Positions 5,499 through 41,063 of a DNA stretch of 45,905 nt are shown here, piece by piece. The notes below the pieces were generated by a model. That model had not been told where the DNA came from. It saw nothing but the letters and a program-made list of their open reading frames with translations, and made no database searches. Source of the DNA: Desulfobacterales bacterium (lineage in GTDB: Bacteria; Desulfobacterota; Desulfobacteria; Desulfobacterales; JAFDMD01); contig JAOZTP010000001.1 of NCBI GenBank assembly GCA_029939135.1, positions 1-45,905 of the forward strand, given 5' to 3'. Each line of letters begins with the position of its first letter. The first letter of the stretch is position 1. Both the position numbers and the translations under genes were made by a program.

Positions 5499-5612
5499 TG
5501 GATTTTTTCTCGCTTCATTTGCTAAAATGACATGGTAAAAAACCGCCTGTATAAATGAGAAAGCAAAAAAAATGCTTGCTGTCATTTCAAGCGAAGCGAG
5601 AAATCCCTTTAT
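5499..5612. repeat. Palindromic intergenic repeat, copy A (MITE/REP-like)
   Basis: Left arm GGATTTTTTCTCGCTTCATTTGCTAAAATGACA. Right arm GCTGTCATTTCAAGCGAAGCGAGAAATCCCTTTATT. Same family as the copies at 22697, 35682, 37568 and 40962. Confidence 0.6.
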
Positions 5613-5790
5613 TGTTTTAATGCTATTCACAATAAAGTTGCGGATAAATCAAGAGAAAAAAAAGGGGTATTGTTTTTACTTTTACGGGAATTAATAATAA
5701 TTATAGCCCGTTATCGCAAAGGTTGACTTTTAATTTATATATAGTTATGTATAATTATTCATATTAATAATTAAATCGGAGGTTTAAATA

Positions 5791-6723
5791 ATGCCGCTTT
5801 TTGAAATTTCAAAAAACAATTTGTCATCCATAGGACAAAAAAATTTTGAATTAGAAAAAAAATTACAGATATTGATAGAAAAAAATTTAAAAACAGTTTT
5901 TAACTGTCGTTTTGTCGCTACGGAATTTTCTACGGGTAATCAACACAATGGAAGAATAGATACTTTGGCTCTTTCCGAAGATAATAATCCTGTTATTATA
6001 GAATATAAAAAGGTCGTATCTTCGGAATTAATAAATCAAAGTTTATTCTATCTGTATTGGCTGCAAGATCATAAAGGCGATTTTGAGATAGCCGTTTAAA
6101 AAAAACTTGGAAATTCGATAAAAATAGATTGGTCAGATATTAGAGTGATTTGTATTGCCCCCAATTATAAAAAATATGATCTGCATGCCGTTCAAGTTAT
6201 GGGGGCAAATATCGAACTTTGGAAATATCGACTTTTTACCAATAATATTTTATATTTTGAAGAAGTTTTGCATACTTCAAAAATTATCTCAGGTTCCGAG
6301 ACGTCAAATAAAAATCCGGTTATGGTTGAAGCAGGAAAAAAAGCGGCGATTACAAAAGCTACGGCTATATATACATTCGATGAACATATAGAAGGCAAAC
6401 CTGACCATATTAAAGAGATTGTTTATAAAATCAGAGAATTTATAATGGAATTAGATACTTCAATTGAAGAAATTCCTAAAAAATATTATGTCGCATATAA
6501 AGTTTCACAAAATATTGTTTGTATGATTATAAAAGGGCAGCTAATTAATTTATTTTTAAAATTAGATGAGTCAGAAGTTTTAAACCCGCCTGAATTTTAT
6601 AAAGATATGAGTCAAACAGGACATCAGGGCACAGGCGACGCAAGATTTGCTATCTCGTCGGAATCAGAATTGGACCAGACAAAACCTTTTATTGAGCTGG
6701 CATATAATAAAATCGGAGGGTAG
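5791..6723 (+). pseudogene. NucS-like PD-(D/E)xK nuclease / DUF5655-type protein interrupted by an in-frame TAA (6097..6099)
   Basis: ORFs 5791..6099 and 6145..6723 share one frame. Translation reads straight through: ...HKGDFEIAV*KKLGNSIKIDWSDIRVICIAPNYKKYD. The N-terminal half has GRIDTLAL...VIIEYKK (D...ExK). Confidence 0.6.
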
Positions 6724-6790
6724 TTAGGCTTAACTACAATCAAATAAAATTCGATAATTTTATAATATTTTTTATTAAAAAAGAATTGCT

Positions 6791-7063
6791 ATGTTAATAA
6801 TAAAAAAAGCGGAGTATATCGGCGATTATACAATCCGGCTTATTTTTAACAACGGAAAAAAGGGGAAAGTCGATCTTGAAAAAATAATATTTGAAGATAA
6901 AAGACCGATTTTTTCAAAATTAAAAAATAAAAACGATTTTAAAAATTTCCAAATTAAGTATAATACCGTAACTTGGAACGCAGGGCTTGATTTGGCTCCG
7001 GAGTATCTTTTTTACCTTGCATTTAAAGAGGATATGGATTTACAAAATCAATTTAAACAATGA
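6791..7063 (+). CDS. DUF2442-like small protein
   Basis: 90 aa. The pattern ...IKKAEYIGDYTIRLIFNNGKKGKVDL...WNAGLDLAPEYLF resembles the DUF2442 family. A paralog lies at 33285..33524. Confidence 0.6.
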   Translation: MLIIKKAEYIGDYTIRLIFNNGKKGKVDLEKIIFEDKRPIFSKLKNKNDFKNFQIKYNTVTWNAGLDLAPEYLFYLAFKEDMDLQNQFKQ

Positions 7064-7388
7064 GGTTATATCAAAATATAAAATACCTCATTATAACGGC
7101 TTATTATTTCCCGAACCTCCAATATTCCCTCCCGAAAATTCCTATTTATTAAAAACTGATTTGACATAAAAAAAAGACTGGCTTAAAACTCATAGGCTTA
7201 TAAACTTGTAGATAGAAAAATAGTTTCTGTTTGCTTTTAAGGCTGAAAAAAGGTTTTAATTTTTAAAATCGGTTGAAAATTCTAAAGATTAAAGTTTTTT
7301 TAAGCGTTAATTAGAAACAAGCTTCTATATTTTTCTATAAAAAACAGATTTACAATCTAATAATGCTGATATTTTCAAGGAGGAAACA

Positions 7389-8393
7389 ATGAGCATAAAA
7401 ATAGGAATTAACGGATTTGGCAGAATCGGGCGTAACATGTTAAGAGCCGCTTTGGATAACAAAGATGCCGAAATAGTCGCTATAAACGACCTTATGGAGC
7501 CGGAAACAATAGCTCAACTGCTTAAATACGATTCGGTTCATGGCAGACTTGACGCCGAAGTAAAGGCGTTAAGCGGCGCAATAGAGGTAAACGGCAAAAA
7601 AATAGCCGTAACTTCAATTAAAGACCCAGCAGCGCTTAAATGGAAAGAATTCGGCGTAGATATAGCCGCAGAAAGCACGGGGCTTTTCAGAGATAGAGAA
7701 AGCGCAAAAAAACATCTTGCGGCGGGAGCAAAAAAAGTAATAATTTCGGCTCCGGGAAAAGATCCTGATATAACCATAGTGTTAGGCGTAAATGCCGACG
7801 AATACGACAGCGCAAAACATCATATAATATCAAACGCTTCCTGCACTACAAACTGTCTTGCTCCGGTAGCAAAAGTGTTAAATGATAAATTTAAAATCAA
7901 AACAGGGCTTATGACTACGGTCCATGCTTATACCGGAGATCAAAAACTTCTTGATGCTCCTCATAAAGATTTAAGACGCGCAAGAGGCGCCGCTCTTTCT
8001 ATGATACCGACAACTACCGGCGCGGCAAAAGCGGTCGCCCTTGTTTTACCGGAACTTTCCGGCAAACTTTCCGGACTTGCCGTAAGAGTGCCTACATCCA
8101 ACGTATCTTTGGTTGATCTTGTAGTCTCCGTAGAAAAGCAAAATATTACCGTAGAAGAGGTAAACGTCGCTTTAAAAGAGGCTTCGGAAAGTTATTTGGC
8201 AAATATACTCGGATACAGCGAGCTTCCTTTGGTTTCAATTGATTTTAACGGAGTGAAATTATCCTCCATAGTAGATGCGCCATGCACTTATGTGGGAGGC
8301 AATTTGATAAAGGTTCTTTCATGGTATGACAATGAAACCGGATATGCTAACAGAATGATCGATCTTGCCGTAATGGTAGGAAAAAAATTATAA
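7389..8393 (+). CDS. gap: Type I glyceraldehyde-3-phosphate dehydrogenase
   Basis: IGINGFGRIGRN Rossmann motif, active-site SNASCTTNCLAP, WYDNE near the C-terminus, AGGAGG RBS upstream. Confidence 0.95.
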   Translation: MSIKIGINGFGRIGRNMLRAALDNKDAEIVAINDLMEPETIAQLLKYDSVHGRLDAEVKALSGAIEVNGKKIAVTSIKDPAALKWKEFGVDIAAESTGLFRDRESAKKHLAAGAKKVIISAPGKDPDITIVLGVNADEYDSAKHHIISNASCTTNCLAPVAKVLNDKFKIKTGLMTTVHAYTGDQKLLDAPHKDLRRARGAALSMIPTTTGAAKAVALVLPELSGKLSGLAVRVPTSNVSLVDLVVSVEKQNITVEEVNVALKEASESYLANILGYSELPLVSIDFNGVKLSSIVDAPCTYVGGNLIKVLSWYDNETGYANRMIDLAVMVGKKL

Positions 8394-8397
8394 TAAT

Positions 8398-10575
8398 ATG
8401 AATTCTCCGATTAAAATAAAAGCCCAAATAGAAAGAATAACCTATAATAACGAAGAAAACGGTTATACCGTCGCAAGGGTAAAAATATTCGGAGAAAGAA
8501 GATTAATTACGGTAGTGGGCAGTATTGTATCTCCTACCCCGGGCGAAGTAATAGAAATGGAAGGCAATTGGGATAATCATCCTCAGTACGGAGAGCAGTT
8601 TCGTATTAAAGCCTGCAAAACATCTGTTCCCGCTACCGTATATGGCATAAAAAAATATCTCGGATCAGGACTTATCAAAGGCATAGGTCCTGTAATGGCT
8701 GAAAGAATAGTAAAAAAATTTAAGGAAAACACTCTTGAGATTATAGAAAAAAATATAGAAAACTTAACCCAAATAGAAGGAATAGCCGCCAAAAGAATCA
8801 AAATGATTCAAAAGGCTTGGGATGAGCAGAAAGATATTCGGGATTTAATGATTTTTCTTCAAAGCCATGGGGTAAGTTCCGGATATGCGGTAAAGATTTT
8901 CAAACGCTACGGAAATGCGGCTATAAATATAGTAAAGGAAAATCCTTACAGACTTGCCTCGGATATTTTCGGAATAGGCTTTGTAATAGCGGACAGCATA
9001 GCCGAAAAACTCGGAATTGCCAAAGATTCCGAAATAAGAGCGACAGCCGGAATATTATATGTTTTAGGCAAGACCGCAGAGGAGGGAAACGTATATTATC
9101 CTTATTCGCTTTTGCTTGAAAAATGCAAATCTATTTTAGATATATCAACCGATAATATAATATTCGCTCTTGGAAACCTAACATTAAGCAAACAGGTTAT
9201 AGTAGAAGATATTAACGAAGATAAAGAGTGGACCGAAAATAACAAAGCCGTATATCTTGCCAAATATCATGTTTGCGAAACGGCTTCGGCTTTTCGCATA
9301 AAAAATCTTATCCATTCTCAAAAATCATTACCGGAAATAGACGCCGATAAAGCTATCGAGCGGATTCAGAGCAGGCTAAACATTAAGCTTGCGGAAAAAC
9401 AGAAAGAGGCGGTTAAATCTGCTTTTCAAAATAAGGTTCTCGTAATAACAGGCGGACCCGGAACAGGCAAAACTACAATAATAAACTCCATAATAAAGAT
9501 ATTTTTACAAGAGAGCGTCAAAATACTTCTTGCCGCGCCTACAGGGCGGGCGGCAAAAAGAATGAGCGAAACTACCGGTTACCCCGCCTCCACAATACAT
9601 AGGCTTTTGGATTTTAATATGGCTGATAAAAAATTCAGGCATAATTTGCAAAATCCTTTAAAGTGCGACCTGTTAATAATAGACGAAGCCTCAATGATAG
9701 ACGTTCTGTTAATGCATCATCTTTTAAAAGCGGCGCCGCAAAATGCGGTTTTTATATTGGTAGGCGATATAAATCAGCTTCCTTCCGTAGGAGCGGGCAA
9801 TGTTTTAAAAGATATTATAGATTCCGGCGCGGTAAGCGTAGTTGAATTAAAAGAGATATTCAGGCAGGCGCAACAAAGCTCTATTATAGTGAACGCTCAT
9901 AGAATCAATCAGGGACTTTCCCCTTTTTATGCAAACGATTCTCCTGATACGGACTTTTATTTTATAGAGAAAGAGGATCCGGAAGAGGTTTTAAAAATAA
10001 TAGTTGATCTTGCATCAAACAGAATAACAAAACGTTTCGGTTTTGATCCTATAGAGGATATACAGGTATTAACCCCGATGCATAAAGGGGTAGTCGGAGC
10101 CGAAAATCTTAATAAAGAGTTAAGAAGGGTATTAAACCCGAACAAGTCCGAAATATCCGTAGGGTTTAAAACCTTTGCGGAACAGGATAAGGTTATGCAG
10201 ATAACCAACAATTACGATAAAAAGGTATATAACGGAGACATAGGCAGGATCATAAGAATAAATAAAGAGGATCAGAAAGCGTTAATACGTTTTGACGCAA
10301 AAGATATAGAATTTTCATTCTCCGATTTAGACGAAATAACTCATGCTTACGCCGTATCGGTTCATAAATCTCAGGGATCCGAATATCCGGCGGTTATAAT
10401 TCCGATTTTAACCCAGCATTATATATTGTTGCAAAGAAACCTTCTTTATACCGCCATAACAAGAGGCAAAAAATTAGTAACCATAGTAGGCTCAAAAAAG
10501 GCTATGGCTATAGGTATCAATAACGACAAGGTTAAAAAAAGATATACTCTTTTTAAAAAAAGACTTCAAAATTAA
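8398..10575 (+). CDS. recD2: RecD2-type SF1 ATP-dependent DNA helicase
   Basis: 725 aa with an N-terminal HhH region. Walker A is GGPGTGKTT, Walker B is LLIIDEASMID. VGDINQLPSVGAG and a C-terminal YAVSVHKSQGSEY...TAITRGKK are typical of RecD-like helicases. Confidence 0.85.
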   Translation: MNSPIKIKAQIERITYNNEENGYTVARVKIFGERRLITVVGSIVSPTPGEVIEMEGNWDNHPQYGEQFRIKACKTSVPATVYGIKKYLGSGLIKGIGPVMAERIVKKFKENTLEIIEKNIENLTQIEGIAAKRIKMIQKAWDEQKDIRDLMIFLQSHGVSSGYAVKIFKRYGNAAINIVKENPYRLASDIFGIGFVIADSIAEKLGIAKDSEIRATAGILYVLGKTAEEGNVYYPYSLLLEKCKSILDISTDNIIFALGNLTLSKQVIVEDINEDKEWTENNKAVYLAKYHVCETASAFRIKNLIHSQKSLPEIDADKAIERIQSRLNIKLAEKQKEAVKSAFQNKVLVITGGPGTGKTTIINSIIKIFLQESVKILLAAPTGRAAKRMSETTGYPASTIHRLLDFNMADKKFRHNLQNPLKCDLLIIDEASMIDVLLMHHLLKAAPQNAVFILVGDINQLPSVGAGNVLKDIIDSGAVSVVELKEIFRQAQQSSIIVNAHRINQGLSPFYANDSPDTDFYFIEKEDPEEVLKIIVDLASNRITKRFGFDPIEDIQVLTPMHKGVVGAENLNKELRRVLNPNKSEISVGFKTFAEQDKVMQITNNYDKKVYNGDIGRIIRINKEDQKALIRFDAKDIEFSFSDLDEITHAYAVSVHKSQGSEYPAVIIPILTQHYILLQRNLLYTAITRGKKLVTIVGSKKAMAIGINNDKVKKRYTLFKKRLQN

Positions 10576-10685
10576 TTCTGCTAAAAAGGATTAATATATT
10601 CGTTTAGTTATTAAGAACTATAGGTCAGCAACTAAGACCGAAAAACTATTAAAAAATAGTATAAATTAATATAGGAAAATAAAAG

Positions 10686-12545
10686 ATGTCATATTTTCAA
10701 AATACAGTAGTTTATATTGAAGGTAATGAAAAGTTAAGAACCCCGCAGATTGAAGCTTATATTAACATTAAAGAATTCTTTAGAAAAAAACCTAATGGAG
10801 AGGCTCTTGTTGTTTTACCTACAGGTACAGGAAAAAGCGGTCTTATTTCTATAGCGCCTTTTGGAGTGGCAAATGGAAGAGTATTAGTTATAACTCCGGG
10901 CATAGTAACTAAAAAAAGCGTCATAAAAGCACTACATCCTTTGGAAGATAATTTTTGGGTTAATCGTGATGTATTATTTAATCCTAAAGATATTCCTGTC
11001 GTAGAAGAATATGAACCTGATATTCTTGATTCTCATCTTGAAAAATGCAACTTTGTAATAACTAATGTTCACAAACTTCAAGAAGGTAAAAAATCATCTT
11101 TATTAGAGAGAGTAAAATCAGATTTTTTTGATATGATTATAGTAGATGAAGCCCATCATGCGCCTGCTGAAACGTGGCAACGTGTTTTTGAATATTTTAG
11201 TAATGCTAAAATATTACATATAACAGGCACTCCTTATAGAGGAGATTCGAAAGAAATTCCGGGAGAGCGAATTCATAATACTCCGTTATCGCAGGTTATG
11301 GCTGATAAATATGTAAAATGGTTGCGCAAAAAAAATGTTAATAGTGATGACTTGTTTTTCACATTGCCAGAAAATCCAGATAAAAAATTTTCTATAGATG
11401 AAGTGATTGGATTCAAAGATAAAGAATGGATCGAAAAGTCAATTGCTTTATCTGAAGAATGTTCTTTAGATGTTATAAGGCAAAGCATAACAGAGTTAAA
11501 ACAACTCAAAGAAACATCTCCTAATGTTCCGCATAAAATTTTAGCCGTAGCTTGCAGCATTAAACATGCCGAAGATGTATGTAAATGGTATGAAAAACAA
11601 AACATGAAGACAGTTTTAGTTCATAGTGGTATGAGAAACGAGTTAATAGAAAAAAATTTAAGGCAAATAGATAATAACGAATGCCAAGTGGTTGTTTCTG
11701 TAAATATGCTTATGGAAGGATATGATCATAAATATTTAACCGTACTCTCAATTTTCAGACCTTATAGAAGCCTAAACGCTTTTGCTCAGGTAGTAGGACG
11801 AATATTACGAGCTATTCCTGACGAAGAGATAACTAATTTTGCTATTGATAACAACGCTGTCGTAATATTCCATAAAGAAATCGGATTAGATGCTATGTGG
11901 ATGGAATTTCAAAAAGAAGTAGAGCGAGCTAACAAACTTATAAATATAAGAGATTATACTTTTTTAGATCGAGAATATGAAAATAGAAAAACAGAATATG
12001 GAACTATTGATAAGGTTGATGACTATTTTGTTGAGAATGAGGATTCATATCTTTTAGCTATGGATTTTAACAAATTATTTCAAGAAGCACGAACTAACAT
12101 TGATGACAAAACAGATATTGAATTTAATAAGGTTAAAAACCAATTAGGATTAAGTGAAGAGGGATTAGAGGATGTAAAGAAAGTAATTCGCAAAGATTTA
12201 ACATCAAAAAATACATCAGAATTAAATAAAATGCTTATTGAAAAACGCCCTGCAATGGCGAGGGCACAATATAGAAAAATATTAAAAGAAAAGTCGGATG
12301 AGGTGGCTTTAGAGCTTCTTGAAGAAAAGGGAATTGACCCTATAGCAACTAATTTATTTGATAAGTTTAATAAATTAATTTATAAACTCCAAAATAATAC
12401 GACTAACGTTGGTATAATAGTTAGGTATATAAATGATAAACTTCGTAACAAATTTGGTCCCGTTGATAAAAGAGAATTAGAAACTTTATCTTTGTCATTC
12501 GAGTATATCAAAAATATTATAGAAGAATTAAGGAGGATGATATGA
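10686..12545 (+). CDS. SF2 (ResIII/DEAH-type) helicase with an about 200-aa uncharacterised C-terminal extension
   Basis: Motif I VVLPTGTGKSG, motif II IIVDEAHHAP, motif III ITGTPYR, motif VI FAQVVGRILR. I recognised no nuclease or methylase motif. Confidence 0.8.
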   Translation: MSYFQNTVVYIEGNEKLRTPQIEAYINIKEFFRKKPNGEALVVLPTGTGKSGLISIAPFGVANGRVLVITPGIVTKKSVIKALHPLEDNFWVNRDVLFNPKDIPVVEEYEPDILDSHLEKCNFVITNVHKLQEGKKSSLLERVKSDFFDMIIVDEAHHAPAETWQRVFEYFSNAKILHITGTPYRGDSKEIPGERIHNTPLSQVMADKYVKWLRKKNVNSDDLFFTLPENPDKKFSIDEVIGFKDKEWIEKSIALSEECSLDVIRQSITELKQLKETSPNVPHKILAVACSIKHAEDVCKWYEKQNMKTVLVHSGMRNELIEKNLRQIDNNECQVVVSVNMLMEGYDHKYLTVLSIFRPYRSLNAFAQVVGRILRAIPDEEITNFAIDNNAVVIFHKEIGLDAMWMEFQKEVERANKLINIRDYTFLDREYENRKTEYGTIDKVDDYFVENEDSYLLAMDFNKLFQEARTNIDDKTDIEFNKVKNQLGLSEEGLEDVKKVIRKDLTSKNTSELNKMLIEKRPAMARAQYRKILKEKSDEVALELLEEKGIDPIATNLFDKFNKLIYKLQNNTTNVGIIVRYINDKLRNKFGPVDKRELETLSLSFEYIKNIIEELRRMI

Positions 12546-13077: not shown

Positions 13078-13105
13078 GTAGAGACGTTGCTTGCAACGTC
13101 TCTAC
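13078..13105. terminator. Perfect 12-bp hairpin (GTAGAGACGTTG-CTTG-CAACGTCTCTAC), member of a two-copy hairpin family
   Basis: Lies 7 nt beyond the kinase stop and downstream of the helicase module. The same core recurs at 41075..41116. Confidence 0.5.
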
Positions 13106-13111
13106 TGCTGT

Positions 13112-22549: not shown

Positions 22550-22696
22550 AATTAAGCATTTCCTTTCAATTAATTAAAATTAATATTTAATTTTTTTTAT
22601 TTTTATTAATTTTAATTGTTAAGCTTGTCAATAAATAAGTAAGAGAGAATTCAAGGAGAAGAGGATTTTATCAAGATTTTAACTACGATTCATACA

Positions 22697-22815
22697 ATTA
22701 AGGGATTTCGCCTTGTTGCGCTTGTCGAAATAACATCGTAAAAAAAGGTTCGCCAAAATAATGCGGCAAAAATAAGAAGCCTGTCATTTCGAGAGAAGCG
22801 AGAAATTCCTTAATT
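22697..22815. repeat. Palindromic intergenic repeat, copy B
   Basis: AATTAAGGGATTTCGCCTTGTTGCGCTTGTCGAAATAACA...CTGTCATTTCGAGAGAAGCGAGAAATTCCTTAATT. Confidence 0.6.
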
Positions 22816-22826
22816 GTTTTTTCTGT

Positions 22827-23666
22827 TTATATCTTGTGTTTTTCAAAAATAGCTTTTAATGACGCTTTACCTATTATGTGGGCTTTATCCGAAATAGTAT
22901 AACAGGCTTGTTTATCTGATCGGGGATCCACGTCTCCTATTTTTAAGCCTGCAAAAACCTGTCTGTTATTCATAATTAAGCCTCTTATTACTCCGTTAAA
23001 AGGGGCTTTCACCTCGGCGTTATCCACATAACAGATTATATCATCTTTTTTTACGTAATCTCCTATATCAAGGATATTTTTTATTATGCCGGATTTAGGC
23101 GAGCGCAATACTCTTTCTTTTGCATAACCCATTATATTTGCTGGAATCCCGGTGTTTGCGGATGCGAAACCTTTACGGACAATTTGTCCCAAACTTTCGC
23201 CCCTATTTGTTTCTATTACTATATCCGCATTTTTTCCGGCTTCAAATCCGGGTCCCAATGCTATGACAAGGGGCGCAATCTTTTTTGTTAAACCCAGATT
23301 TTTTTTTGCTATCGTAGCGTCTATTACTACATTAGGTTTGAAAAAATTAATAGCGGCAGATAATGTATCGGTTATAACCGGAATATTATTATCTGATAAT
23401 ATTTTTTCAGCCTTTTTGAAATTATCCGAAAAAACGGCGGTTACTCCTTCAATAGTAGTTTTTTTGTCTATCTTCGCCTGAGCGAAAGATACTTTTCTTC
23501 GGACGGCAAGGGGATTATCTATTTCTAAAATCACAACCTTTATTTTTGCTTTATAAAGGTTGTATGCAACTCCTGATGCTACGTCTCCTCCTCCTCTTAT
23601 TATTACGGATATGTTTTTTAAAAATCCTTGATAATTAAGAGGCTTGTTATCTTTAATCTTTGACAT
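22827..23666 (-). CDS. Possible YqeB/XdhC-like accessory protein (selenium-dependent molybdenum hydroxylase system type)
   Basis: VIIRGGGDVASGVAYNLYKA...LEIDNPLAVRRKVSFAQA resembles the YqeB family as I recall it. This was not verified by search. Confidence 0.4.
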   Translation of the reverse strand: MSKIKDNKPLNYQGFLKNISVIIRGGGDVASGVAYNLYKAKIKVVILEIDNPLAVRRKVSFAQAKIDKKTTIEGVTAVFSDNFKKAEKILSDNNIPVITDTLSAAINFFKPNVVIDATIAKKNLGLTKKIAPLVIALGPGFEAGKNADIVIETNRGESLGQIVRKGFASANTGIPANIMGYAKERVLRSPKSGIIKNILDIGDYVKKDDIICYVDNAEVKAPFNGVIRGLIMNNRQVFAGLKIGDVDPRSDKQACYTISDKAHIIGKASLKAIFEKHKI

Positions 23667-26609: not shown

Positions 26610-28889
26610 ATGCAACACAACCTTCTTGATACAATAGGGAACACTCCGATTGTAGAAATAAAAAAATTAAATCCGAATCCTAATGTAAAGATATTTGCAA
26701 AATTAGAATATATGAACCCGGGCGGCTCAATTAAGGATAGGATTGCTTATTCTATGATATTAGACGGAGAAAAGAAAAAAAGCTTAACGCCGGATAAGAT
26801 TGTTATTGAAGCCACAAGTGGAAATACGGGAATAGGGCTTGCTTTGGTTTGCGCGGTCAAAGGGTATAAGCTTATGATAGCGATGCCGGAAACTGCAAGC
26901 GAAGAACGAAAGCAGATATTAAAAGCTATGGGGGCGGATCTTATTCTTACTCCAGGAGCGTTGGGAACCGACGGAGCGATAGAAGAGGTTTATAATATTG
27001 CGAGAGAAAAGCCGAATCTTTATTTTATGACGGACCAATTCAATAGTCCGGCAAACTGGCAGGCTCACTATTATGGGACCGCAAATGAAATATGGGAACA
27101 AACGGAACAAAAGATAACAATGTTGGTCGCTACAATGGGAACTACCGGAACGGTTATGGGATTATCAAGAAGATTAAAGGAGCTTAATAATAGTATAAAA
27201 ATTATAGGGGTAGAGCCTTATTTGGGGCATAAGCTTCAGGGTTTAAAAAATATGAAAGAGGCTTATTGTCCCGAATTATACGAAAAGGGGCGGCTTGATA
27301 CAAAGATTAATATAGACGACGACAAAGCTTTTGAAATGACAAAACGTCTTGCAAAAGAGGAGGGCTTATTTGTAGGAATGAGCAGCGGAGGCGCTTTAAG
27401 CGTAGCGCAAAAAGAGGCTGAAAAGATGGAAAGCGGGGTTATAACGGTTATTTTTCCGGACGGCGGAGAAAGATATTTAAGCGCTAATCTTTTTACTCCG
27501 AAAGCGAAGACAAATATAAAGCTTTTCAATACGATATCCGGCAAAAAAGAGAGATTTATCTCTATAAAGACGGATGAAGTATCCGTATATTCTTCCGGTC
27601 CTGCAGTATTTTCAAAGCTTGATTTGGGGGAATGCAGGCGTTATGTTTTTGCGGATATTATTTGCAGATATTTTAAATTTTTAAATTTCGAAGTAAAGCA
27701 TATAATAGATATTACGGATATGGACGATAAAACAATAGAAGGCTCTTCAAATGAAAATATGCTTTTATCCGATTTTACGCAAAGAAATATAGAATCGTTT
27801 AAACGGGATTTGAAAATATTAAATATTTGCCCCGCATCAGATTATCCGAAGGCTAGCGAGCATATACAAGATATGATAGACCTTGCGAAAAAGCTTGTTG
27901 AAAAGGGTTTTGCTTACGAAAAATTACGCTCCTTATATTTTGATATTTCGAGATGTAAAGAATACGGCAAGCTATCCCGCATAAATCTTGATAAAATAAA
28001 AATAGGCGCAACGGTTGATTTGGATAGTTACGAAAAGAATAATCCGAAAGATTTTACTTTGTTTAAGCGAGCAAAACTATCCGAATTAAAGCGAGGAATA
28101 TACGCAAAAACGGACTGGGGAAATGTTCGTCCTTCTTGGCATATACAATCAGCCGCAATAGCCGCAAAATATTTGGGAGAAACTTTCGATATACATATAA
28201 GCGCAAAAAATTTTATATTTCCTCATCATGAAAATAAGATTGCCATAGCCGAAAGCGCTACGGGCAAGCTTCCGGCAAAATACTGGGTGGACTGCGATAA
28301 GGTTATGTTTAACGGTAAAAAAACGGATAAAGGAAATAATTTTCATACCGTAGAGGAGCTGTTAAAACAAGGATATACCGGTGAGGAAATAAGATACTGG
28401 CTTATGGCGACCCATTACGGAAAGCCTATAGTATTATCCGCCGAAAGACTTGATTACCGAAAAAGAGCGCTGCAAAGGATGAATCGATTTATTGCGTCTC
28501 TTATAAATATCAAAGGGGGCGAGACTTATCCTGAAACGGAGCAACTTTGCTATGATATAAAAAATGATTTTATATCGGCTATGGACGATGATTTAAACGT
28601 ATCTGCGGCGTTAGCCTCTATTTTTATAAATATTAAAAAAATAAATAAATTAACTTTAGATAAAAAGCTTGATAAATCGGACGCCGAAAAGATTATAACG
28701 GTATTTGAAAAGATAAATACCGTTTTGCAGATATTTGATTTGGATAAAAAGGTTTATAACGAAAATATAGAGGCTTTAATAAAGAAACGGGAAGAAGCGA
28801 GAAGAAATCAGGACTGGGACGCCGCCGATAAAATAAGGGAAGAGCTTAAAAGTATTGGCGTTAATATATTCGATAAAAAAATCGGATAA
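26610..28889 (+). CDS. Fusion protein: cysteine synthase (CysK/CysM-type, PLP) joined to a CysRS-like domain with degenerate catalytic motifs
   Basis: The first ~295 aa carry GGSIKDR (PLP Lys), TSGNTGIGLA, GTTGT and SSGG. From IKLFNTISGKKERF onward the protein is colinear with CysRS (ITDMDDKTI, FPHHENK, and a C-terminal IEALIKKREEARRNQDWDAADKIREEL). Confidence 0.8.
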   Translation: MQHNLLDTIGNTPIVEIKKLNPNPNVKIFAKLEYMNPGGSIKDRIAYSMILDGEKKKSLTPDKIVIEATSGNTGIGLALVCAVKGYKLMIAMPETASEERKQILKAMGADLILTPGALGTDGAIEEVYNIAREKPNLYFMTDQFNSPANWQAHYYGTANEIWEQTEQKITMLVATMGTTGTVMGLSRRLKELNNSIKIIGVEPYLGHKLQGLKNMKEAYCPELYEKGRLDTKINIDDDKAFEMTKRLAKEEGLFVGMSSGGALSVAQKEAEKMESGVITVIFPDGGERYLSANLFTPKAKTNIKLFNTISGKKERFISIKTDEVSVYSSGPAVFSKLDLGECRRYVFADIICRYFKFLNFEVKHIIDITDMDDKTIEGSSNENMLLSDFTQRNIESFKRDLKILNICPASDYPKASEHIQDMIDLAKKLVEKGFAYEKLRSLYFDISRCKEYGKLSRINLDKIKIGATVDLDSYEKNNPKDFTLFKRAKLSELKRGIYAKTDWGNVRPSWHIQSAAIAAKYLGETFDIHISAKNFIFPHHENKIAIAESATGKLPAKYWVDCDKVMFNGKKTDKGNNFHTVEELLKQGYTGEEIRYWLMATHYGKPIVLSAERLDYRKRALQRMNRFIASLINIKGGETYPETEQLCYDIKNDFISAMDDDLNVSAALASIFINIKKINKLTLDKKLDKSDAEKIITVFEKINTVLQIFDLDKKVYNENIEALIKKREEARRNQDWDAADKIREELKSIGVNIFDKKIG

Positions 28890-28919: not shown

Positions 28920-28944
28920 GGATTTTGCGCAAAGCGTAAAATCC
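28920..28944. terminator. Hairpin between the convergent cysK-cysS-like gene and the usp gene
   Basis: GGATTTTGCGC-AAA-GCGTAAAATCC (11 bp with one G-U pair), followed by CTTTATTCTTTTA. Confidence 0.5.
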
Positions 28945-28954
28945 CTTTATTCTT

Positions 28955-33796: not shown

Positions 33797-33868
33797 AGTT
33801 AATACCTTTTTTTGTATTGTTGGTTGATATTCGGCTGTAACCGGTTTGAATTTTTCCGAATTTATAGG

Positions 33869-34696: not shown

Positions 34697-34808
34697 GCTT
34701 TACTCTGTGTTTAAAAATTGTTTATTGAATAGAACAATTTTAATTATGAAAAAATTTAACGAAATAATATTTTACCGCATAAATTTATCGCTTAAACTGT
34801 GATCATAT

Positions 34809-35522: not shown

Positions 35523-35565
35523 TGTGGAATCATCCTTTATTTAAATTTTGGCGGATAATTTCGCA

Positions 35566-35596
35566 GGTTGGGTTTCGCTTCGCTCAACCCAACCTG
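35566..35596. other. Hairpin AGGTTGGGTT-N11-AACCCAACCT just upstream of livF
   Basis: A 10-bp perfect stem, seen directly. It sits between the inserted cassette and the livF start. Confidence 0.45.
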
Positions 35597-35681
35597 ATTA
35601 GCTACTTTGTTATCCGTCAAAATCCCATTATTTTTTTGCAATTCAATTTTAGTTATGAGGGTTTCCTCTGTTTATAATTTT

Positions 35682-35798
35682 AATTAAGGGATTTCTCCTC
35701 GCTACGTTCGTCGAAATGAGAAGCAAAAATAAGATTCGTCAACAAGACGGAAGAAATTTTTTTTTTGTCTTGTCTCTCGAAGCGAGAAATCCTTTAAT
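35682..35798. repeat. Palindromic intergenic repeat, copy D (flanks the ATPase/Toprim-like cassette)
   Basis: AATTAAGGGATTTCTCCTCGCTACGTTCGTCGAAATGAGAAGC...CTTGTCTCTCGAAGCGAGAAATCCTTTAAT. Confidence 0.65.
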
Positions 35799-35819
35799 AT
35801 TTTTAATAATAAACGGTTA

Positions 35820-36449
35820 TTATATAAAAAGTTGTTTTAGAAATTGTTTTATATCTTGAAAACATTGATGCTCAAAATTCCAATATCCTTTTAATGCTCC
35901 AAGCCCGAGAGAGTTTTTTATAGGAGAACAAGATGCCAAGTATGCTTGAACGCGGGCTTTCGGATCATTATACTTTTTTTTCTCTTCCTCTTTTTGATCA
36001 GCCTGAAAGCATTCGATATAATTTTGAATGCAGCCGTTTATAGGTTCGTCTTTAATAGTTTGCAAACATAGGTTTTCGAGCATTCCGGCTACTTTGTTAT
36101 CCGGCATTATATAAACGCCTATTTTAAAACCTTGTTTTTCCGTAACTTGATTCGGTTTGTCCGGCGTCGGCAATTCTTTTTTTTTTAATATGCCGCAAAT
36201 GCTTTGAAATGCGGATTGAGCGGGCTTTTCTTCCGCGTCTCTAACAAAGCCGAGTTGTTTTATTCGCTTGAATCCTTCGCCTATGTAAAGGGCGTCAAAT
36301 TTATCGGCAAATTGATCCTTGCCGCCTATATCTACAAGCTGAACATGTTTTATATCTAAATATTTTAATAACGCTTTAAAAAAATTGCATTCATCCTTAC
36401 CTTCTACCGCAAGAAGATTATTCGATTCTATTTTAAAATTTTTGCCCAT
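35820..36449 (-). CDS. Small Toprim-like protein (DUF4276/DUF3226/DUF4435-style partner of ABC ATPases)
   Basis: 209 aa. The N-terminal beta-strand plus Glu motif is NLLAVEGKDECNFFKALL. A later acidic motif is LGFVRDAEE. The start overlaps the ATPase stop (TAATG). Confidence 0.5.
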   Translation of the reverse strand: MGKNFKIESNNLLAVEGKDECNFFKALLKYLDIKHVQLVDIGGKDQFADKFDALYIGEGFKRIKQLGFVRDAEEKPAQSAFQSICGILKKKELPTPDKPNQVTEKQGFKIGVYIMPDNKVAGMLENLCLQTIKDEPINGCIQNYIECFQADQKEEEKKKYNDPKARVQAYLASCSPIKNSLGLGALKGYWNFEHQCFQDIKQFLKQLFI

Positions 36450-37492
36450 TAGCGCGCCTCAAAATTTTTTTCGATACCGGCTTCTAAAGCCCGAGCGGAA
36501 GCCGAATAAGCTTTATGGTTTTCTCCGTCTTTATCTAATCTGTAAAGACGTATATCGTCTCCTTGCGGCTCTATTTCGGCATAAGCGTTTGAAAGGGCTT
36601 CGATGGCTTCGTAAGAATGAGTGGTTGCTATTAATTGAACGTTATATGCTTTGCAAGCCGTTAAAATAGCGTTCCAAGCTGTTTTTAAGGATGAATAATG
36701 CAAACCGTTTTCTATTTCGTCTATTAAAACGATGCCGTTTTTTTTTTCCGCAATAGCGGTTAAGAACGCGAGTATTCTACGCATTCCATCCCCCATTATA
36801 TTAATAGGCAATAGATGATTTCCGCCTACGTCAATATAGATAATCCCTTTTGCTCCAATTCTTATATCGGTAATATTAGGTTCAATTTTTTGTAAAACCG
36901 AAATAATAGTATCAAGCTTTTTTTGCACCGTTAGGTTTTCCAATGCTTCTGTTATAGACGGTTCTGTTTTAGACGGCAGATATACGCAATTTAAAGTTTC
37001 TTTGGGCGACGCCACGGATGTATTTTTGTTTAAGCTGTATTTTCCTTCGTAAACCAACTCGTTTTGATGATTACGACAATCAAGTTTTATGCCGTCAACA
37101 GCGTTGCCGGAATCGGTCGAAGCAGCGTAATTATATAAAGAAACCTCCGATTTTTCAAATTTTTGGGCGCTTTCATCTGCATAAATGGGAGTAATTGTTA
37201 AGTTCCGTTTCCTATCATCTATCGTCCCTCTTAAAACAATTTCGTTTTGGAAGTTTAAATCTTTAAACATAAAGCTAAACTCTTGATCTTTTGTTATAGG
37301 GAAACCTCGAAATTTATGTATTTTAACCGGCAGCGTAGCGTTAGACATCCCTGAAAGCAGAAAAACTGCTTCAAGAACCGAAGTTTTACCGCAATTATTG
37401 CGTCCTACCAAAAGGTTTACCCATTTTAGGTCGTCTATTTTAAGCTTTTTTATTCCTCTGAAATTTTCTATTGTAAGGGATTGATATTGCAT
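36449..37492 (-). CDS. ABC/SMC-like AAA ATPase (AAA_15/AAA_21 type)
   Basis: LTIENFRGIK...LLVGRNNCGKTS (Walker A), MGDGMRRIL, IVLIDEIENGLH (Walker B/D-loop) and ATTHS (H-loop). Confidence 0.8.
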   Translation of the reverse strand: MQYQSLTIENFRGIKKLKIDDLKWVNLLVGRNNCGKTSVLEAVFLLSGMSNATLPVKIHKFRGFPITKDQEFSFMFKDLNFQNEIVLRGTIDDRKRNLTITPIYADESAQKFEKSEVSLYNYAASTDSGNAVDGIKLDCRNHQNELVYEGKYSLNKNTSVASPKETLNCVYLPSKTEPSITEALENLTVQKKLDTIISVLQKIEPNITDIRIGAKGIIYIDVGGNHLLPINIMGDGMRRILAFLTAIAEKKNGIVLIDEIENGLHYSSLKTAWNAILTACKAYNVQLIATTHSYEAIEALSNAYAEIEPQGDDIRLYRLDKDGENHKAYSASARALEAGIEKNFEAR

Positions 37493-37567
37493 GACAGTTT
37501 ATATCCTTTTTTCAATAATGCTCAAATTTTATCATTCTTTTTTGCAATTATATTTTTTAATCGCAGT

Positions 37568-37718
37568 TAATCAAGGGATTTCTCCTCGCTATGCTCGTCG
37601 AAATGACAGGCAAAATAACAGCTCATCGTGATGAGAAACAAAAATAACAGCACGTTGACGTTACGGAGTAAAAAATAACTCTTTTTGTTATTTCGAGTAA
37701 AGCGAGAAATTTTTTAAT
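37568..37718. repeat. Palindromic intergenic repeat, copy E (flanks the ATPase/Toprim-like cassette)
   Basis: TAATCAAGGGATTTCTCCTCGCTATGCTCGTCGAAATGACAGGC...GTTATTTCGAGTAAAGCGAGAAATTTTTTAAT. Same orientation as copy D. Confidence 0.65.
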
Positions 37719-37778
37719 TATTTTTTATAATCAGACTTTTTTTATATTTTACTCGTTTTCCGCATTATACTTCAAATG

Positions 37779-38552
37779 TTAGGTTATATCCTCTTTGCCG
37801 AGATACGCCTCTATAACCTGCGGGTTATTTTGTATTTGCTCCGGAGTTCCTTCGGCTATTACCTCTCCGAATACCAAAGTTTGTATTGTTTCGCAAAGTT
37901 CCATTACAAATTTGAGTCTGTGTTCTATTAAAAATATGGCTACGTTAAATTCTTTTCGGACGTTTTTTATTATTTGTATCATTCGGATTAACTCTTCGGG
38001 GGTCATTCCCGCGGTAGGCTCGTCGAGAAATAGAACTTTCGGCTTTATAGCCATAGCTCTTGCCATTTCCACTCTTCGTTGAGCGCCGTAAGGAAGGTTA
38101 ACCGCAAGCATGTTTGCAAAGTCGGATATATCGAAGATTTCCATGAGCCTGCGGGCGCTTTCCTCTATTTCCGCTTCCTGTTTGCGTCGTTTTTTTGTTC
38201 CGAAAAAGGAGCCTATAAGTCCGTAGTTGATTTGCGAATAATGGGCTATTTGTATATGATCGAAAACCGTTAAATGTCTCCATAATAAAAGGTTTTGGAA
38301 TGTCCTGCCAAGTCCTTTTGAGGCTATTTGATGCGGAAAGAGTCCTGTTATTTCTTCTTTATCAAGCTTTACGCTGCCTTCGGAAGGCTTGAATATTCCG
38401 GTGATGAGGTTGAATACGGTTGTTTTTCCGGCGCCGTTGGGTCCTATTAAGCCTTGTATTTTATTTTTTTCAAGATTAAGGTTGTAGTTGTGAACCGCCC
38501 TTAAACCGCCGAAAAAATGGGTCATATTTTCTACTTTAAGCAGAGGAGTCAT
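37779..38552 (-). CDS. livG: Branched-chain amino-acid ABC transporter, ATP-binding protein LivG
   Basis: Walker A GPNGAGKTT, signature LPYGAQRRVEMARA, Walker B LFLDEPTAG, and C-terminal NPQVIEAYLG. Confidence 0.9.
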   Translation of the reverse strand: MTPLLKVENMTHFFGGLRAVHNYNLNLEKNKIQGLIGPNGAGKTTVFNLITGIFKPSEGSVKLDKEEITGLFPHQIASKGLGRTFQNLLLWRHLTVFDHIQIAHYSQINYGLIGSFFGTKKRRKQEAEIEESARRLMEIFDISDFANMLAVNLPYGAQRRVEMARAMAIKPKVLFLDEPTAGMTPEELIRMIQIIKNVRKEFNVAIFLIEHRLKFVMELCETIQTLVFGEVIAEGTPEQIQNNPQVIEAYLGKEDIT

Positions 38553-38555
38553 TTT

Positions 38556-39824
38556 TTATTTGTCTCCTTTGGGAGCAAGTATTTTTTTTATATTAAATTC
38601 TTTAAATGCGACAAGTCCGGTAGGTTTGTATATCATTATCAATATCATAATAACCGGTATTATAATCCATTTGAAAAGTTCCAGGGGTCTTAAAGCTTCG
38701 CTTGCAAGATTAAAGCTTATCGCCCCTATAATGGAGCCTACTACGGAATTTAATCCGCCGAAATATACCATAGTAAATATTTCTGCAAGTTTTTTAATGC
38801 CGAATGTTCCCGGATTTACGTAGCATAACACATGGGCAAAAAGCCCTCCTGCTATGCCTGCCCAGAATGCGGCGAACATAAAGGTTACTATTTTTGTTTT
38901 TCTTGTATTAACCGTCATTGCATTTGCGGCTGTTTCGTTATCTCTTACCGCATTTGTAGCTTTTCCGATTATTGAGGTAACGAAATTGTTGATTATCCAG
39001 ATTGATAGCGCCGTCCATATAAAAACCGTAGGAAGATTTGCCAAATGAGGCTGGCTCCCCATGCCTCTGGCTCCTCCCAAAACTTCAAGGTTTTCTATAA
39101 GGCTTTTGACTATAAACATAAAGGCAAGCGATATTATGGCAAGATAATCCCCTCTGGTTCTAAAAGAGGGGATGGCAACGAGAAGGGAGCCTATCGCCGC
39201 GATTATTCCGCCGGCTATAAGGGCTATGGGAAATAAAAACGGCGCAAGATAGGAAGGAAGCAAAGCTTCTCCGAAAAGTTTGTCGTTTGCGCATAAAATA
39301 AGGGTTACGGTCGAGGCTGTATAAGCGCCGAGAGCCATAAATCCGGTATGAGAGCATGAAAATTCGCCCATGTATCCGTTTATGACGTTTAGGCTTAGGG
39401 TTAATATTATGGCTATGAATGTAAGTTTTATGGTAACTATTCTGTAATCGCTTATACCAGCCCATATATCTATTATTATATATAAGAATATCAGATATAA
39501 GACGGTATAAACGGGCGTGGGCAGTTTATAAAGTTTTGCGGCGATTTTATTTATTGTGCCAGAGCAAAAGCGGGCGGTTAAGGTTAAGGGGAGCAGATAG
39601 ACTATAATTATATAAGCTGAAGCCCCGGGTATTAAAAGCGGTTTTTTTAGCATTATAAGGAAGCCGAATAATGCCGGAATTTTCGGAAGCCCGAGCATCC
39701 AAGCTATATTATCGCCTATGAGATATTCTATAATAACTGCGGTTAAAAATCCGAAAAGCCAGCCTAATGCGGGCATTGCGGAAAAGAATCTGAAAAATTT
39801 TTTAAATCTGATAATTGGTTTCAT
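38556..39824 (-). CDS. livM: Branched-chain amino-acid ABC transporter permease LivM
   Basis: A polytopic membrane protein with ...LNVINGYMGEFSCSHTGFMALGAY..., typical of LivM. It lies between livH and livG. Confidence 0.85.
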   Translation of the reverse strand: MKPIIRFKKFFRFFSAMPALGWLFGFLTAVIIEYLIGDNIAWMLGLPKIPALFGFLIMLKKPLLIPGASAYIIIVYLLPLTLTARFCSGTINKIAAKLYKLPTPVYTVLYLIFLYIIIDIWAGISDYRIVTIKLTFIAIILTLSLNVINGYMGEFSCSHTGFMALGAYTASTVTLILCANDKLFGEALLPSYLAPFLFPIALIAGGIIAAIGSLLVAIPSFRTRGDYLAIISLAFMFIVKSLIENLEVLGGARGMGSQPHLANLPTVFIWTALSIWIINNFVTSIIGKATNAVRDNETAANAMTVNTRKTKIVTFMFAAFWAGIAGGLFAHVLCYVNPGTFGIKKLAEIFTMVYFGGLNSVVGSIIGAISFNLASEALRPLELFKWIIIPVIMILIMIYKPTGLVAFKEFNIKKILAPKGDK

Positions 39825-39893
39825 ATTTTTATATTTAAAATAGAAATTGGGTTAATTTTTATTTGTCATAATATGTTTTGTTTGGACAATTAT

Positions 39894-39930
39894 GAGTTTT
39901 CTCCTCGCCTCGCTTTTCGAAATGGCAAGC
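39894..39930. repeat. Half copy (left arm) of the palindromic repeat, copy F
   Basis: GAGTTTTCTCCTCGCCTCGCTTTTCGAAATGGCAAGC, in the livH-livM spacer. Confidence 0.4.
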
Positions 39931-39938
39931 GGGAAGAA

Positions 39939-40853
39939 TTAAAGCCTTAAACTTGAACTGTGAGCTTTGCCGAAAAATCCGTGAGGACGCACAGTCAATA
40001 TAATAAGTATTATTGAATATGCTATCAGATCTCTTAATGTGGAAGGAAATATCATAGCCGTAAATATTTCTATAAATCCGAGCAAGAAACCTGCTAAAGC
40101 CGCCCCCAAAATTGAGCCCCTACCGCCTAATATTGCCGCTACAAAGGCTTTCCAACCCAAAAGTATTCCCATGTAGGGGTCTAATACCGGATATGCAAGC
40201 CCGTAAAGTATGCCTGCCGCAGCCGCAAGCGCGGAGCCTATGGCAAAGGTTAAAGGAGCTATTACGTTTAACGATATTCCCATAAGCGGAACTGTCAAGA
40301 AATCGTAAGACATAGCCCGCATAGCCATGCCCCATTTTGTTTTTTCTATAAAAAAGTGCAGCCCCGCCATTAGAAAAAGGGAGATTGCCACTATTATGAT
40401 TTTTTTGTTGGTAATAAAGACGCCAGAGATATTGTAGGTAACCGTTTCCACAAGCTGCGGAAAAGCGATTCTTTTTGTGCCGAAGATGGCTATATTGGAG
40501 GTTTCTAATATAATGCCTATCATTAAGCCGGTAATTGCAGCGGATGCGCGCGGAGCGTTTCTTAATGGTCTGTATCCGATTTTTTCTATTAATACTCCGA
40601 GCAACGAGGTTAAAAACATAGAGACTATAATTGTCAAAATCAACACAAGCCATCCCGGCGCTGCTCCTCCGAATAAAAGAATAAAAAGGCTTGCTATGCA
40701 AAAGCCGATGTATGCGCCGATCATAAAAATGTCGCCATGAGCAAAATTAAAGAGCATAAGTATGCTATATACCATAGAATAGCCGAGGGCTATAAGAGCG
40801 TAAAAGCTTCCCCACTGTAAAGCGTTGATAAAATTTTGGAGAAAGTATTCCAT
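39939..40853 (-). CDS. livH: Branched-chain amino-acid ABC transporter permease LivH
   Basis: MEYFLQNFINALQWGSFYALIALGYSMVYSILMLFNFAHGD is the canonical LivH N-terminus. Confidence 0.9.
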   Translation of the reverse strand: MEYFLQNFINALQWGSFYALIALGYSMVYSILMLFNFAHGDIFMIGAYIGFCIASLFILLFGGAAPGWLVLILTIIVSMFLTSLLGVLIEKIGYRPLRNAPRASAAITGLMIGIILETSNIAIFGTKRIAFPQLVETVTYNISGVFITNKKIIIVAISLFLMAGLHFFIEKTKWGMAMRAMSYDFLTVPLMGISLNVIAPLTFAIGSALAAAAGILYGLAYPVLDPYMGILLGWKAFVAAILGGRGSILGAALAGFLLGFIEIFTAMIFPSTLRDLIAYSIILIILTVRPHGFFGKAHSSSLRL

Positions 40854-40961
40854 TTTACCTCATTTTGATTTCGTCGGATAACTTCATATTTTGTCTGTTT
40901 TAGGCGTTGATAAGAGACAAGCTACGAAGTTATCCAAGTAAATTTAATCATTTTTTTGTTT

Positions 40962-41063
40962 AATTAAGGGATTTCTCCTCACGCAAAGAAAATACCCGTA
41001 AAAATAACGCGGCGGGAATAGGAAGTCAGGCATTTCGAGCGAAGCGATAAATTCCTTAATTAA
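40962..41063. repeat. Palindromic intergenic repeat, copy G
   Basis: AATTAAGGGATTTCTCCTCACGC...CAGGCATTTCGAGCGAAGCGATAAATTCCTTAATT, in the livK-livH spacer. Confidence 0.6.

Follow-up and report, generated by a model that had tools for sequence, protein, structure and literature searches.

Hairpin repeats between the genes of a Desulfobacterales contig

We analyzed a window of 45,905 nucleotides, which is one whole contig (C88) of a 2.05-Mb Desulfobacterales metagenome-assembled genome (MAG), and focused on a family of palindromic repeats lying between its genes, several of them in the spacers of a liv operon. The assembly comprises 204 contigs at 36% G+C and has a completeness rating of 97.6%. 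When a protein of the window was compared with its relatives, the best named matches, Desulfobacterales MAGs, were 45-49% identical and two congeners were 85-89% identical. We find that the hairpin repeats are real, abundant and lineage-specific, and that the family sits inside the known class of CGTC/TGTC-tagged hairpin repeats, a class related to the motifs of Ssn nucleases.

Five full copies and two single arms had been proposed in an earlier reading of the window (hereafter the original prediction). All five full copies were found, offset by a few bases, and both single arms were real, one being a partial S type and the other an L type (the arm types are defined below); a further S-type singlet had been overlooked. 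Every copy in the window falls between open reading frames (ORFs), as had been claimed, and the placement of four copies in the liv operon is consistent with Pfam calls on an identical public contig. The liv cluster is locally dense, with 7 arms in 6.4 kb where the genome averages one arm per 5.6 kb. By direct reading, the copies have the termini AATTAAGGGATTTCTC...GAAATGACAGG and CCTGTCATTTCGAGCGAAGCGAGAAATCCCTTAATT in common, and mechanical repeat finding also groups them. The inverted termini are present as predicted, but the two ends are not equivalent, and each full copy joins a 43-nt L arm to a 36-nt S arm. What had been described as an A-rich core of 40-90 nt proved to be a spacer made of ~27-nt modules and measuring about 12, 39 or 66 nt.

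Table 1. Copies of the repeat in the window and their immediate context. Strand + denotes a reading from L to S; E values are from hidden Markov model (HMM) searches.
Feature	Position	Strand	Details
Full L+S doublet	5493..5613	+	L arm 5496-5534, degenerate, E=0.008; S arm 5579-5613, E=3e-11; spacer ~44 nt between arm matches (two-module class); separates divergent ORFs 4937..5428(-) and 5791..6099(+)
Full L+S doublet	22696..22815	+	L arm E=9e-10; S arm E=1.5e-10; two-module spacer, ~44 nt between arm matches; 11 nt from ORF 22827..23666(-); both neighbor genes on - strand, mRNA reads S' then L
S-type singlet	28920..28951	+	HMM match 28929-28951; listed by terminator scan; G.A mismatches replaced, stem wholly Watson-Crick or G-T (GGATTTTGCGC-AAA-GCGTAAAATCC), then T-rich tail; directly 3' of ORF 26610..28889(+) (759 aa)
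Partial S-type singlet, TGTCTTGTCAAGCGAAGCGAGAA	29859..29881	+	E=0.009; repeat family D1/D7
L-side extension AAAATTATAAACAGAGGAAACCC, Shine-Dalgarno-like	35655..35681	- (mRNA strand)	Same tail follows 49 of 165 L arms genome-wide
Full L+S doublet	35682..35798	+	L arm 35682-35724 equals consensus, E=3e-14; S arm partly decayed; spacer between AAA_15/DUF3226 cassette and livF
Full L+S doublet	37569..37719	+	L arm E=6e-14; S arm E=1e-5; three-module spacer, ~74 nt between arm matches; spacer between livG and cassette
L-type singlet, livH-livM spacer	39888..39930	-	E=9e-7; repeat family D2; purine (GA) form on - strand, the mRNA-sense strand
Doublet, livK-livH spacer	40962..41063	+	L arm reduced to outer ~19 nt (40962-40980); S arm 41030-41061

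The family is genome-wide and built from two arm types

An HMM built from 14 arms of the window gave 355 matches at E<1 in the genome and a single match in the reversed genome. Separate S and L models gave 271 and 266 matches, with 0 and 1 in the reversed genome, and the merged matches amount to 364 arm loci, 199 S and 165 L. Because the similarity is significant and the family extends across the genome, the copies are explained neither by chance resemblance nor by a local duplication, the two outcomes that would have spoken against the original prediction. Its description of a dispersed, palindromic family resembling repetitive extragenic palindromic (REP) sequences was correct.

The S arm is 36 nt long (CCTGTCATTTCGAGCAAAGCGAGAAATCCCTTAATT) with the layout TGTCATTTC-GA-GC-AAA-GC-GA-GAAATCCC. 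The L arm is 43 nt long (GCTTGTCATTTCGACGAGCGCAGCGAGGAGAAATCCCTTAATT) and differs from S by one extra module, a C-G pair plus G.A/A.G. The S consensus begins CC-TGTC-ATTTC and the L consensus GCT-TGTC-ATTTC. In a first pass, neighboring arms took one relative orientation in 77 of 84 pairs. Among the 107 inward-facing pairs, which have their TGTC ends inward, 104 were L+S, 3 were S+S and none was L+L; about 150 arms are singlets. The doublet lengths group at 83-86, 110-116 and 138-151 nt, and therefore the spacer consists of one to three ~27-nt modules. Each module repeats the inner half of the L arm (TGTCATTTCGAC) and adds a T-run on the mRNA strand. Only 25 of the 364 arm midpoints fall inside a crude ORF, so that ~93% of arms lie outside, and the elements total ~16 kb, roughly 5% of the crude non-coding DNA.

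We also considered whether the elements could be small ORFs, since the consensus has an open frame whose ATG lies in the S flank and whose TAA lies in the L flank, and both the L/S difference and the 27-nt module are multiples of three. This reading was rejected because the element lengths are spread evenly modulo three (24/18/17). Repeats of this kind break short-read assemblies and, in other genomes, also create spurious small ORFs.

Each arm is a conserved hairpin with tandem G.A pairs

On the purine strand, the unit hairpin consists of a TGTC tag, a 5-bp stem ATTTC/GAAAT, tandem G.A/A.G pairs, a 2-bp GC stem, a GNA/AAA triloop and a CCC tail. Written along the strand, the S fold is ATTTC / G.A, A.G / GC / AAA or GAA loop / GC / G.A, A.G / GAAAT. 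The fold is preserved in L because the extra module (3 nt) is inserted on both sides of the stem. Scored over the copies of this genome, pairing in the proposed register reached 82% of cells for S and 87% for L, compared with 17-63% in shifted registers, and the G.A/A.G pairs were found at the predicted stem positions. In genomes of the same order the inner stem covaries, from GC/GC to CC/GG and from GC/GC to GT/AC. With L and S inverted, tags inward and one to three ~27-nt modules between them, the pair could also form one long hairpin; folded in this way, the consensus doublet gave -27.7 and -28.8 kcal/mol (z = -8 to -10).

Orientation follows transcription

We asked how the elements are oriented relative to the genes around them. 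Between genes of the same direction, transcription runs counter to the L-to-S reading in 53 doublets and agrees with it in 7 (p = 8e-10), and singlets keep the polarity of doublets (S 36:11, L 35:6). As a result, the usual transcript reads S' (the pyrimidine form), a U-rich spacer and then L (the purine form). In the window, all five doublets read L to S on the + strand, and four of the five lie between - strand genes. A replication-strand bias was considered and rejected: orientation follows local GC skew weakly (50:39), and where gene strand and skew conflict, 18 of 19 elements follow the gene strand, a margin of 18:1.

The flanks of the two arms differ. On its own strand, the S arm is followed by ATTT and T-rich sequence, and the L arm by A-rich sequence. 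Thus, the rare orientation would place a long hairpin before a U-tract, resembling a terminator, and the common orientation would not. Of the 165 L arms, 49 continue into a tail, AAATTATAAACAGAGGAAA. ORF starts are most frequent 20-40 nt past L arms, and a start lies within 120 nt of 90 of 165 L arms compared with 21 of 199 S arms.

The original prediction had suggested a role at the mRNA level, and the strong orientation bias relative to transcription gives this indirect support. Copies may be kept only where, and in the form that, transcription tolerates. Within transcription units the mRNA would read S', U-rich spacer, L and A-rich sequence; this favored form would be a strong hairpin without a terminator, and the opposite form would be a long hairpin ahead of a U-tract. 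The transcribed copies are probably structured punctuation of polycistronic mRNAs, affecting processing or stability. With ~100 copies and a 53:7 bias, the family offers a natural experiment on how transcription filters hairpin repeats. Judging from its letters, the S-type singlet at 28920-28951 looks like a working terminator of ORF 26610..28889.

Copies are gained and lost among congeners

We probed element junctions against the congener G001 and scored 40 candidates, many of whose flanks are themselves other repeats; four junction-spanning alignments are candidate empty sites. At 35682..35798, G001 has unrelated sequence and a second congener, G002, has a three-module copy. At 37569..37719, a 270-nt block that includes the repeat is missing in G001 and present in G002. 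Two doublets of the liv operon are therefore missing in G001 and present in G002, one of them with an extra module. At 5493-5613, a congener contig (L193 4490-4640, corresponding to window 5440-5620) carries a different repeat, ...GGAGATGTTCAAGTTTGTTTGCTCCGCTTCTTACTTATCGCTTCGGATTTTTGAC..., and not an empty site. Sequences similar to this L193 repeat occur in several element flanks of the genome analyzed here. Other contigs that encode the identical LivF match the window at 99.9-100% identity and for that reason are uninformative on turnover.

We conclude that copies have been gained and lost. Precise transposition is not demonstrated, nor is mobility, because the variable sites lack clean borders. 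Of the checks named with the original prediction, orientation bias was found, clean target-site duplications were not, and orthologous spacers varied in the presence of the element.

By architecture, the family belongs to the CGTC/TGTC-tagged class

The CGTC-tagged REP superfamily comprises the families CGTC-1 to -4 and includes dRS3 of Neisseria and RPE-4/RPE-6 of Rickettsia [Di Nocera, De Gregorio and Rocco 2013, PMC3733652]. Its members carry a terminal tag that is CGTC, often TGTC, or CCTC. Their stem, 8-9 positions long, opens with A-T as both its first and its second pair, the loop measures 4-5 nt, and the tail is short and close to CCA; dimers, including heterodimers, are frequent, and the paper describes no dedicated transposase. 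The repeats studied here share an unpaired TGTC tag adjoining the stem in both arms, and by description they would also resemble the superfamily in stem length, in the A-T pairs at the start of the stem, in the shortness of the loop and in a short tail rich in C. They are likewise present in hundreds of copies (364 arms), mostly intergenic and frequently arranged as inverted dimers (107 pairs), and no dedicated transposase was detected. The arm stem ATTTCGAGC/GCGAGAAAT has 9 positions, beginning with A-T and T-A, and its positions 6-7 are G.A/A.G rather than Watson-Crick pairs.

Compared by description rather than letter by letter with the account in PMC3733652, our family differs in these tandem G.A mismatches inside the stem, in a loop of 3 nt (5 when the closing C-G is assigned to the loop) and in a tail that is CCC or CTC instead of CCA. 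Its dimers have the tags inside ('TT'), an arrangement that the same account gives as rare in the superfamily, the partners are strictly L+S, and the spacer grows by 27-nt modules. The traits that set the family apart are its G.A-mismatch core, the strict L+S doublet with tags inward, the expansion by 27-nt modules, the orientation linked to transcription and the fact that a cognate nuclease was undetected. A literature search with the exact sequences of arm variants returned, among the papers that could be searched, none containing them, and they are also absent from the supplements of PMC3733652 and from PMC12306157. In Rfam, the whole window had no match at gathering thresholds, and two copies gave only chance-level matches with E above 2. 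An abundant family without a previous name, amounting to the ~5% of non-coding DNA noted above, is now placed in a defined class.

Other systems share parts of this arrangement. The REP/BIME (bacterial interspersed mosaic element) and REPIN (REP doublet forming a hairpin) systems with RAYT, the REP-associated tyrosine transposase, are likewise intergenic and consist of hairpin units found as singlets and as inverted doublets that form a long hairpin [Nunvar 2010, PMC2817692]; our arms, in contrast, have no GTAG tag and the genome no Y1 transposase match. The heterodimeric REP dimers of Enterobacteriaceae, as described in PMC3733652, similarly join two unit types.

BOX of Streptococcus pneumoniae (boxA-boxB(n)-boxC) and the ERIC/Correia-type transcribed palindromes are further comparison systems. 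They too have two complementary end modules around a variable number of internal modules, are transcribed with neighboring genes, and have an orientation proposed to influence mRNA fate. Their sequences are unrelated to those studied here, and the end modules of our family are units of a class found in many phyla.

The unit hairpin occurs in many phyla

We examined the distribution of the unit in other genomes. The congeneric genomes carry the S unit, with 52 and 74 pattern matches compared with 72 in this genome. Most other families of the order lack it, and a few have variants with the inner-stem double changes (GC/GC to CC/GG or GT/AC). In two other Desulfobacterales genomes the dimer polarity is opposite, with tags outside, and the dimer of Desulfatirhabdium is again an S+L heterodimer. 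Since polarity is reversed and the S+L pairing is kept, the conserved entity is the single hairpin together with the S/L partnership and not the long palindrome.

A scan for CATTNNGAGCGAAGCGANNAATC in one genome per species gave at least 120 loci, where we estimate that ~4 would be expected by chance. Among the matches listed, to which the cross-phylum counts here refer, the core hairpin GTCATT-NN-GAGCGAAGCGA-N'N'-AATC occurs with covarying stems in more than 15 phyla, including Nitrospirota, Planctomycetota, Acidobacteriota, Chloroflexota, Bacteroidota, Bacillota, Cyanobacteria, candidate phyla radiation (CPR) groups and others. Of 136 instances, 123 have a complementary free stem pair (CT/AG 84, CC/GG 29, TC/GA 7). 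TGTC precedes the motif in nearly all 136, though the pattern did not require it, and about a third have an inverted partner within 300 nt. There was no common neighbor gene around the motif, the largest shared protein cluster reaching 7 of 120 loci. The motif also occurs in 55 IMG/VR stretches, and the exact L unit in two GC-rich contigs of the viral collection. In a metagenome scan the L arm turned up in just 3 contigs, which belong to the same species and carry no Ssn gene.

Related hairpins flank Ssn nuclease genes

SsnA of Neisseria, a 94-aa GIY-YIG nuclease, acts on NTS (CGTCATTCCCGCGMAVGCGGGAATCYRG), the longer form of dRS3: it binds and cuts only one of its strands, in single-stranded form [Chenal et al. 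2025, PMC11893778]. According to the same work, ssn genes of many phyla are bordered by Ssn-related motifs (SRM), a gene with a motif on either side is laid out much like an insertion sequence (IS), and 81% of genomes with >200 such motifs carry ssnA. Our arms share with NTS and SRM, the motifs that go with SsnA (cd10448), the layout (C/T)GTC - ATTYY stem - short loop - RRAAT - C. Unlike SRM, they fail the published string HGTCWYN(0-2)YYVSBRHN(0-5)WNVSBRGN(0-2)RNCYNB. Another difference is that no ssn gene was detected here, and no link to natural transformation is known for the organism.

Ssn-family genes were present in two of the motif loci, each tightly flanked by motifs. We retrieved five more Ssn-family members and read one locus each for four of them; in all four, TGTCATT...GA...GA...AAT hairpins of short and long form stand to either side of the gene, with inner stems that vary (AC/GT, GGCAC/GTGCC, a single G-C). 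Such hairpins thus adjoin the Ssn-family gene in all six loci read (L012, L181, L201, L197, L199 and L203). As with SRM, then, G.A-type hairpins flank Ssn-family genes in Clostridia, Nitrospirota, Chloroflexota, Gracilibacteria and one IMG/VR contig. By analogy, the enzyme class tied to such hairpins elsewhere, the small GIY-YIG nuclease Ssn, would be a better match for the family than TnpA-REP [PMC11893778]. The family is now linked to the recently characterized site-specific single-strand DNA nucleases of the Ssn group.

Two of the Ssn gene neighborhoods have features of their own. In L201 (Clostridia), four tandem hairpin units lie upstream of the Ssn gene and two downstream, all on one strand (GATTCTTCACTGCGTTCAGAATGACA; 1287-1421 and 1785-1846), and a longer hairpin variant stands directly before the start codon. 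In L204 and L205 (1002-3300), contigs of Patescibacteria type, the Ssn-family GIY-YIG gene has a bAvd gene on one side and a reverse transcriptase on the other, which is the neighborhood of a diversity-generating retroelement.

Alternative explanations

The original prediction had offered two routes of mobility. A classical miniature inverted-repeat transposable element (MITE) would be a deletion derivative of a DDE-type IS, with the arms as terminal inverted repeats, moved in trans by the transposase of its parent into AT-rich, TTAA-like targets. The outer ends (AATTAAGGGATTTC...) are indeed inverted repeats of 35-43 nt, and the elements are intergenic, 83-150 bp long and variably present among congeners. 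TTAATTA is kept at both ends and could be a duplicated palindromic target; these ends being palindromic, a target duplication is indistinguishable from the inverted repeat. The basic unit, however, is a lone ~25-nt hairpin: the ~150 singlets are solitary arms, each arm is itself a conserved hairpin that stands alone in many phyla, and dimer polarity is reversed in the two other Desulfobacterales genomes. Where two arms lie 300-5000 bp apart, the genes between them are ordinary and unrelated, with no recurring transposase-like unit, and self-BLAST of the assembly found no repeat of at least 300 bp in more than two places. By these arm-pair and self-repeat tests, no IS with matching ends was found in the genome, and there was no clean target duplication and no empty site with clean borders. 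We regard a MITE origin as very unlikely. The other route, a TnpA-REP or IS200-type enzyme, corresponds to the REPINs of Pseudomonas and E. coli, which a Y1 HUH transposase (RAYT) mobilizes. The population structure of doublets plus singlets is alike, and the genome also has 10 copies of a hairpin of the RAYT-associated type, with a GTAG tag (GTAGGTTGGGTT...), that resemble the Coxiella REP in PMC2817692. Yet PF01797, the Y1 transposase family, had no match in this 97.6%-complete genome, where 6 of 14 control genomes matched; our arms carry TGTC and not GTAG, and PMC3733652 reports no dedicated transposase for CGTC-type REPs. Mobilization by RAYT is, in our view, the most improbable of the explanations considered.

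The explanation we favor, and consider rather probable, is that the elements are REP-type hairpin repeats and not a defective IS, that they spread at the DNA level by an Ssn-like enzyme, and that transcription filters which copies are retained. The family would have multiplied through its single-strand hairpin form by an enzyme that is now lost or encoded in unassembled DNA; we infer both this enzyme and the effect on RNA. Several observations weigh against this explanation. No Ssn-family gene was found in the 204-contig assembly by tblastn with two queries, and an HMM from 121 Ssn homologues run against the six-frame genome matched only UvrC (E=0.007). A gene of ~300 bp bracketed by repeats could drop out of a short-read MAG, and it is exactly at these repeats that public contigs of this species break off. 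The SRM string gives 2 chance matches in the genome and none on an arm, while the Neisseria NTS positive control matches; the S consensus is 1 substitution away from the string and L more than 2. An Ssn gene is present in only 2 of 175 motif-centered loci, so statistical support for the association from this sample is weak. Nearest-neighbor folding of a lone arm is weak (S -1.9 kcal/mol, z = -0.4). The folding parameters appear to give no credit to sheared G.A pairs or GNA triloops, and DNA mini-hairpins of the GCGAAGC type are described as exceptionally stable in PMC13037366. The readable variable sites show larger deletions or another repeat, with neither a clean insertion site nor a target duplication among them. 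Avoidance of terminators leaves the 35:6 bias of L singlets not obviously explained, as their disfavored orientation has no T-tract; these biased singlets may be remnants of doublets. Finally, co-oriented and anti-oriented copies lie in spacers of similar size. A rival reading is retention mainly for an RNA function, in which the long hairpin, transcribed within an operon, would serve in processing or stability as an RNase III/RNase E site or as a stem protecting the upstream and downstream cistrons, the L-side tail could give the downstream gene a ribosome-binding site (RBS), and a DNA-level enzyme would be irrelevant today. Orientation tracks transcription and not GC skew, the tail and the ORF starts cluster beyond L arms, several copies lie within the liv operon, one S-derived singlet resembles a working terminator, and a mobilizing enzyme was undetected. 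Nevertheless, the unit hairpin is near-identical across phyla that differ widely in GC content and gene context, and the broader cross-phylum sample has no orientation bias (28 vs 18 among the matches listed). The G.A plus GNA design is that of the exceptionally stable DNA mini-hairpins just cited, and orthologous spacers in congeners have no element or another repeat, which argues against an essential local role. As a main explanation, RNA function seems unlikely to us. A combined proposal, tentative and in our view also unlikely, is that the G.A-type hairpin (TGTCATT-YY-GA-stem-GNA-stem-GA-RR-AATC, short and long) might be a very widespread class of Ssn site, spread over many phyla and missed by the SRM definition, and that in this small-genome Desulfobacterales lineage it outlived its nuclease and was taken over as strictly oriented operon punctuation, a long non-terminating RNA hairpin followed by an RBS tail. 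If Ssn enzymes do recognize the G.A-mismatch hairpin, their site repertoire would be much wider than the published search motif, which would bear on their use as single-strand DNA tools and on motif counts in genomes.

Other repeats and a cassette in the liv operon

Several other repeats accompany the family. A second hairpin repeat, at window 35563-35596, reads GCAGGTTGGGTT-TCGCTTCGCTC-AACCCAACCTG; GGTTGGGTT occurs 24 times in the genome, and 10 of these copies bear the GTAG tag. Its loop is the GAGCGAAGCGA core of the arms on a different stem, and it resembles the RAYT-associated Coxiella REP [PMC2817692], yet the genome has no Y1 transposase match. A dispersed family, GGATAACAAAG(T/C)AGTTTGTT, is found at window 35550-35620 and in many element flanks genome-wide, with the word AACAAAGTAGTTTGTT occurring 34 times. 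This family often adjoins the L-side tail; spacers between genes are thus mosaics in which several repeat families meet. A palindrome with a 19-bp stem, TTAAGCCATAGAGACGTTG-TTTG-CAACGTCTCTATGGCTTAA, followed by a T-run, occurs at window 41075-41116 and 13079-13109. The palindrome looks like a terminator or another repeat, and one of its copies directly adjoins the livK-livH element.

Between livG and livF, at window 35820-37492, lies a two-gene cassette that encodes a 347-aa ATPase of AAA_15/SMC_N type and a 209-aa DUF3226 protein. The cassette is bracketed by two repeats of the same orientation, and the congener G001 has most of the cassette and neither repeat.

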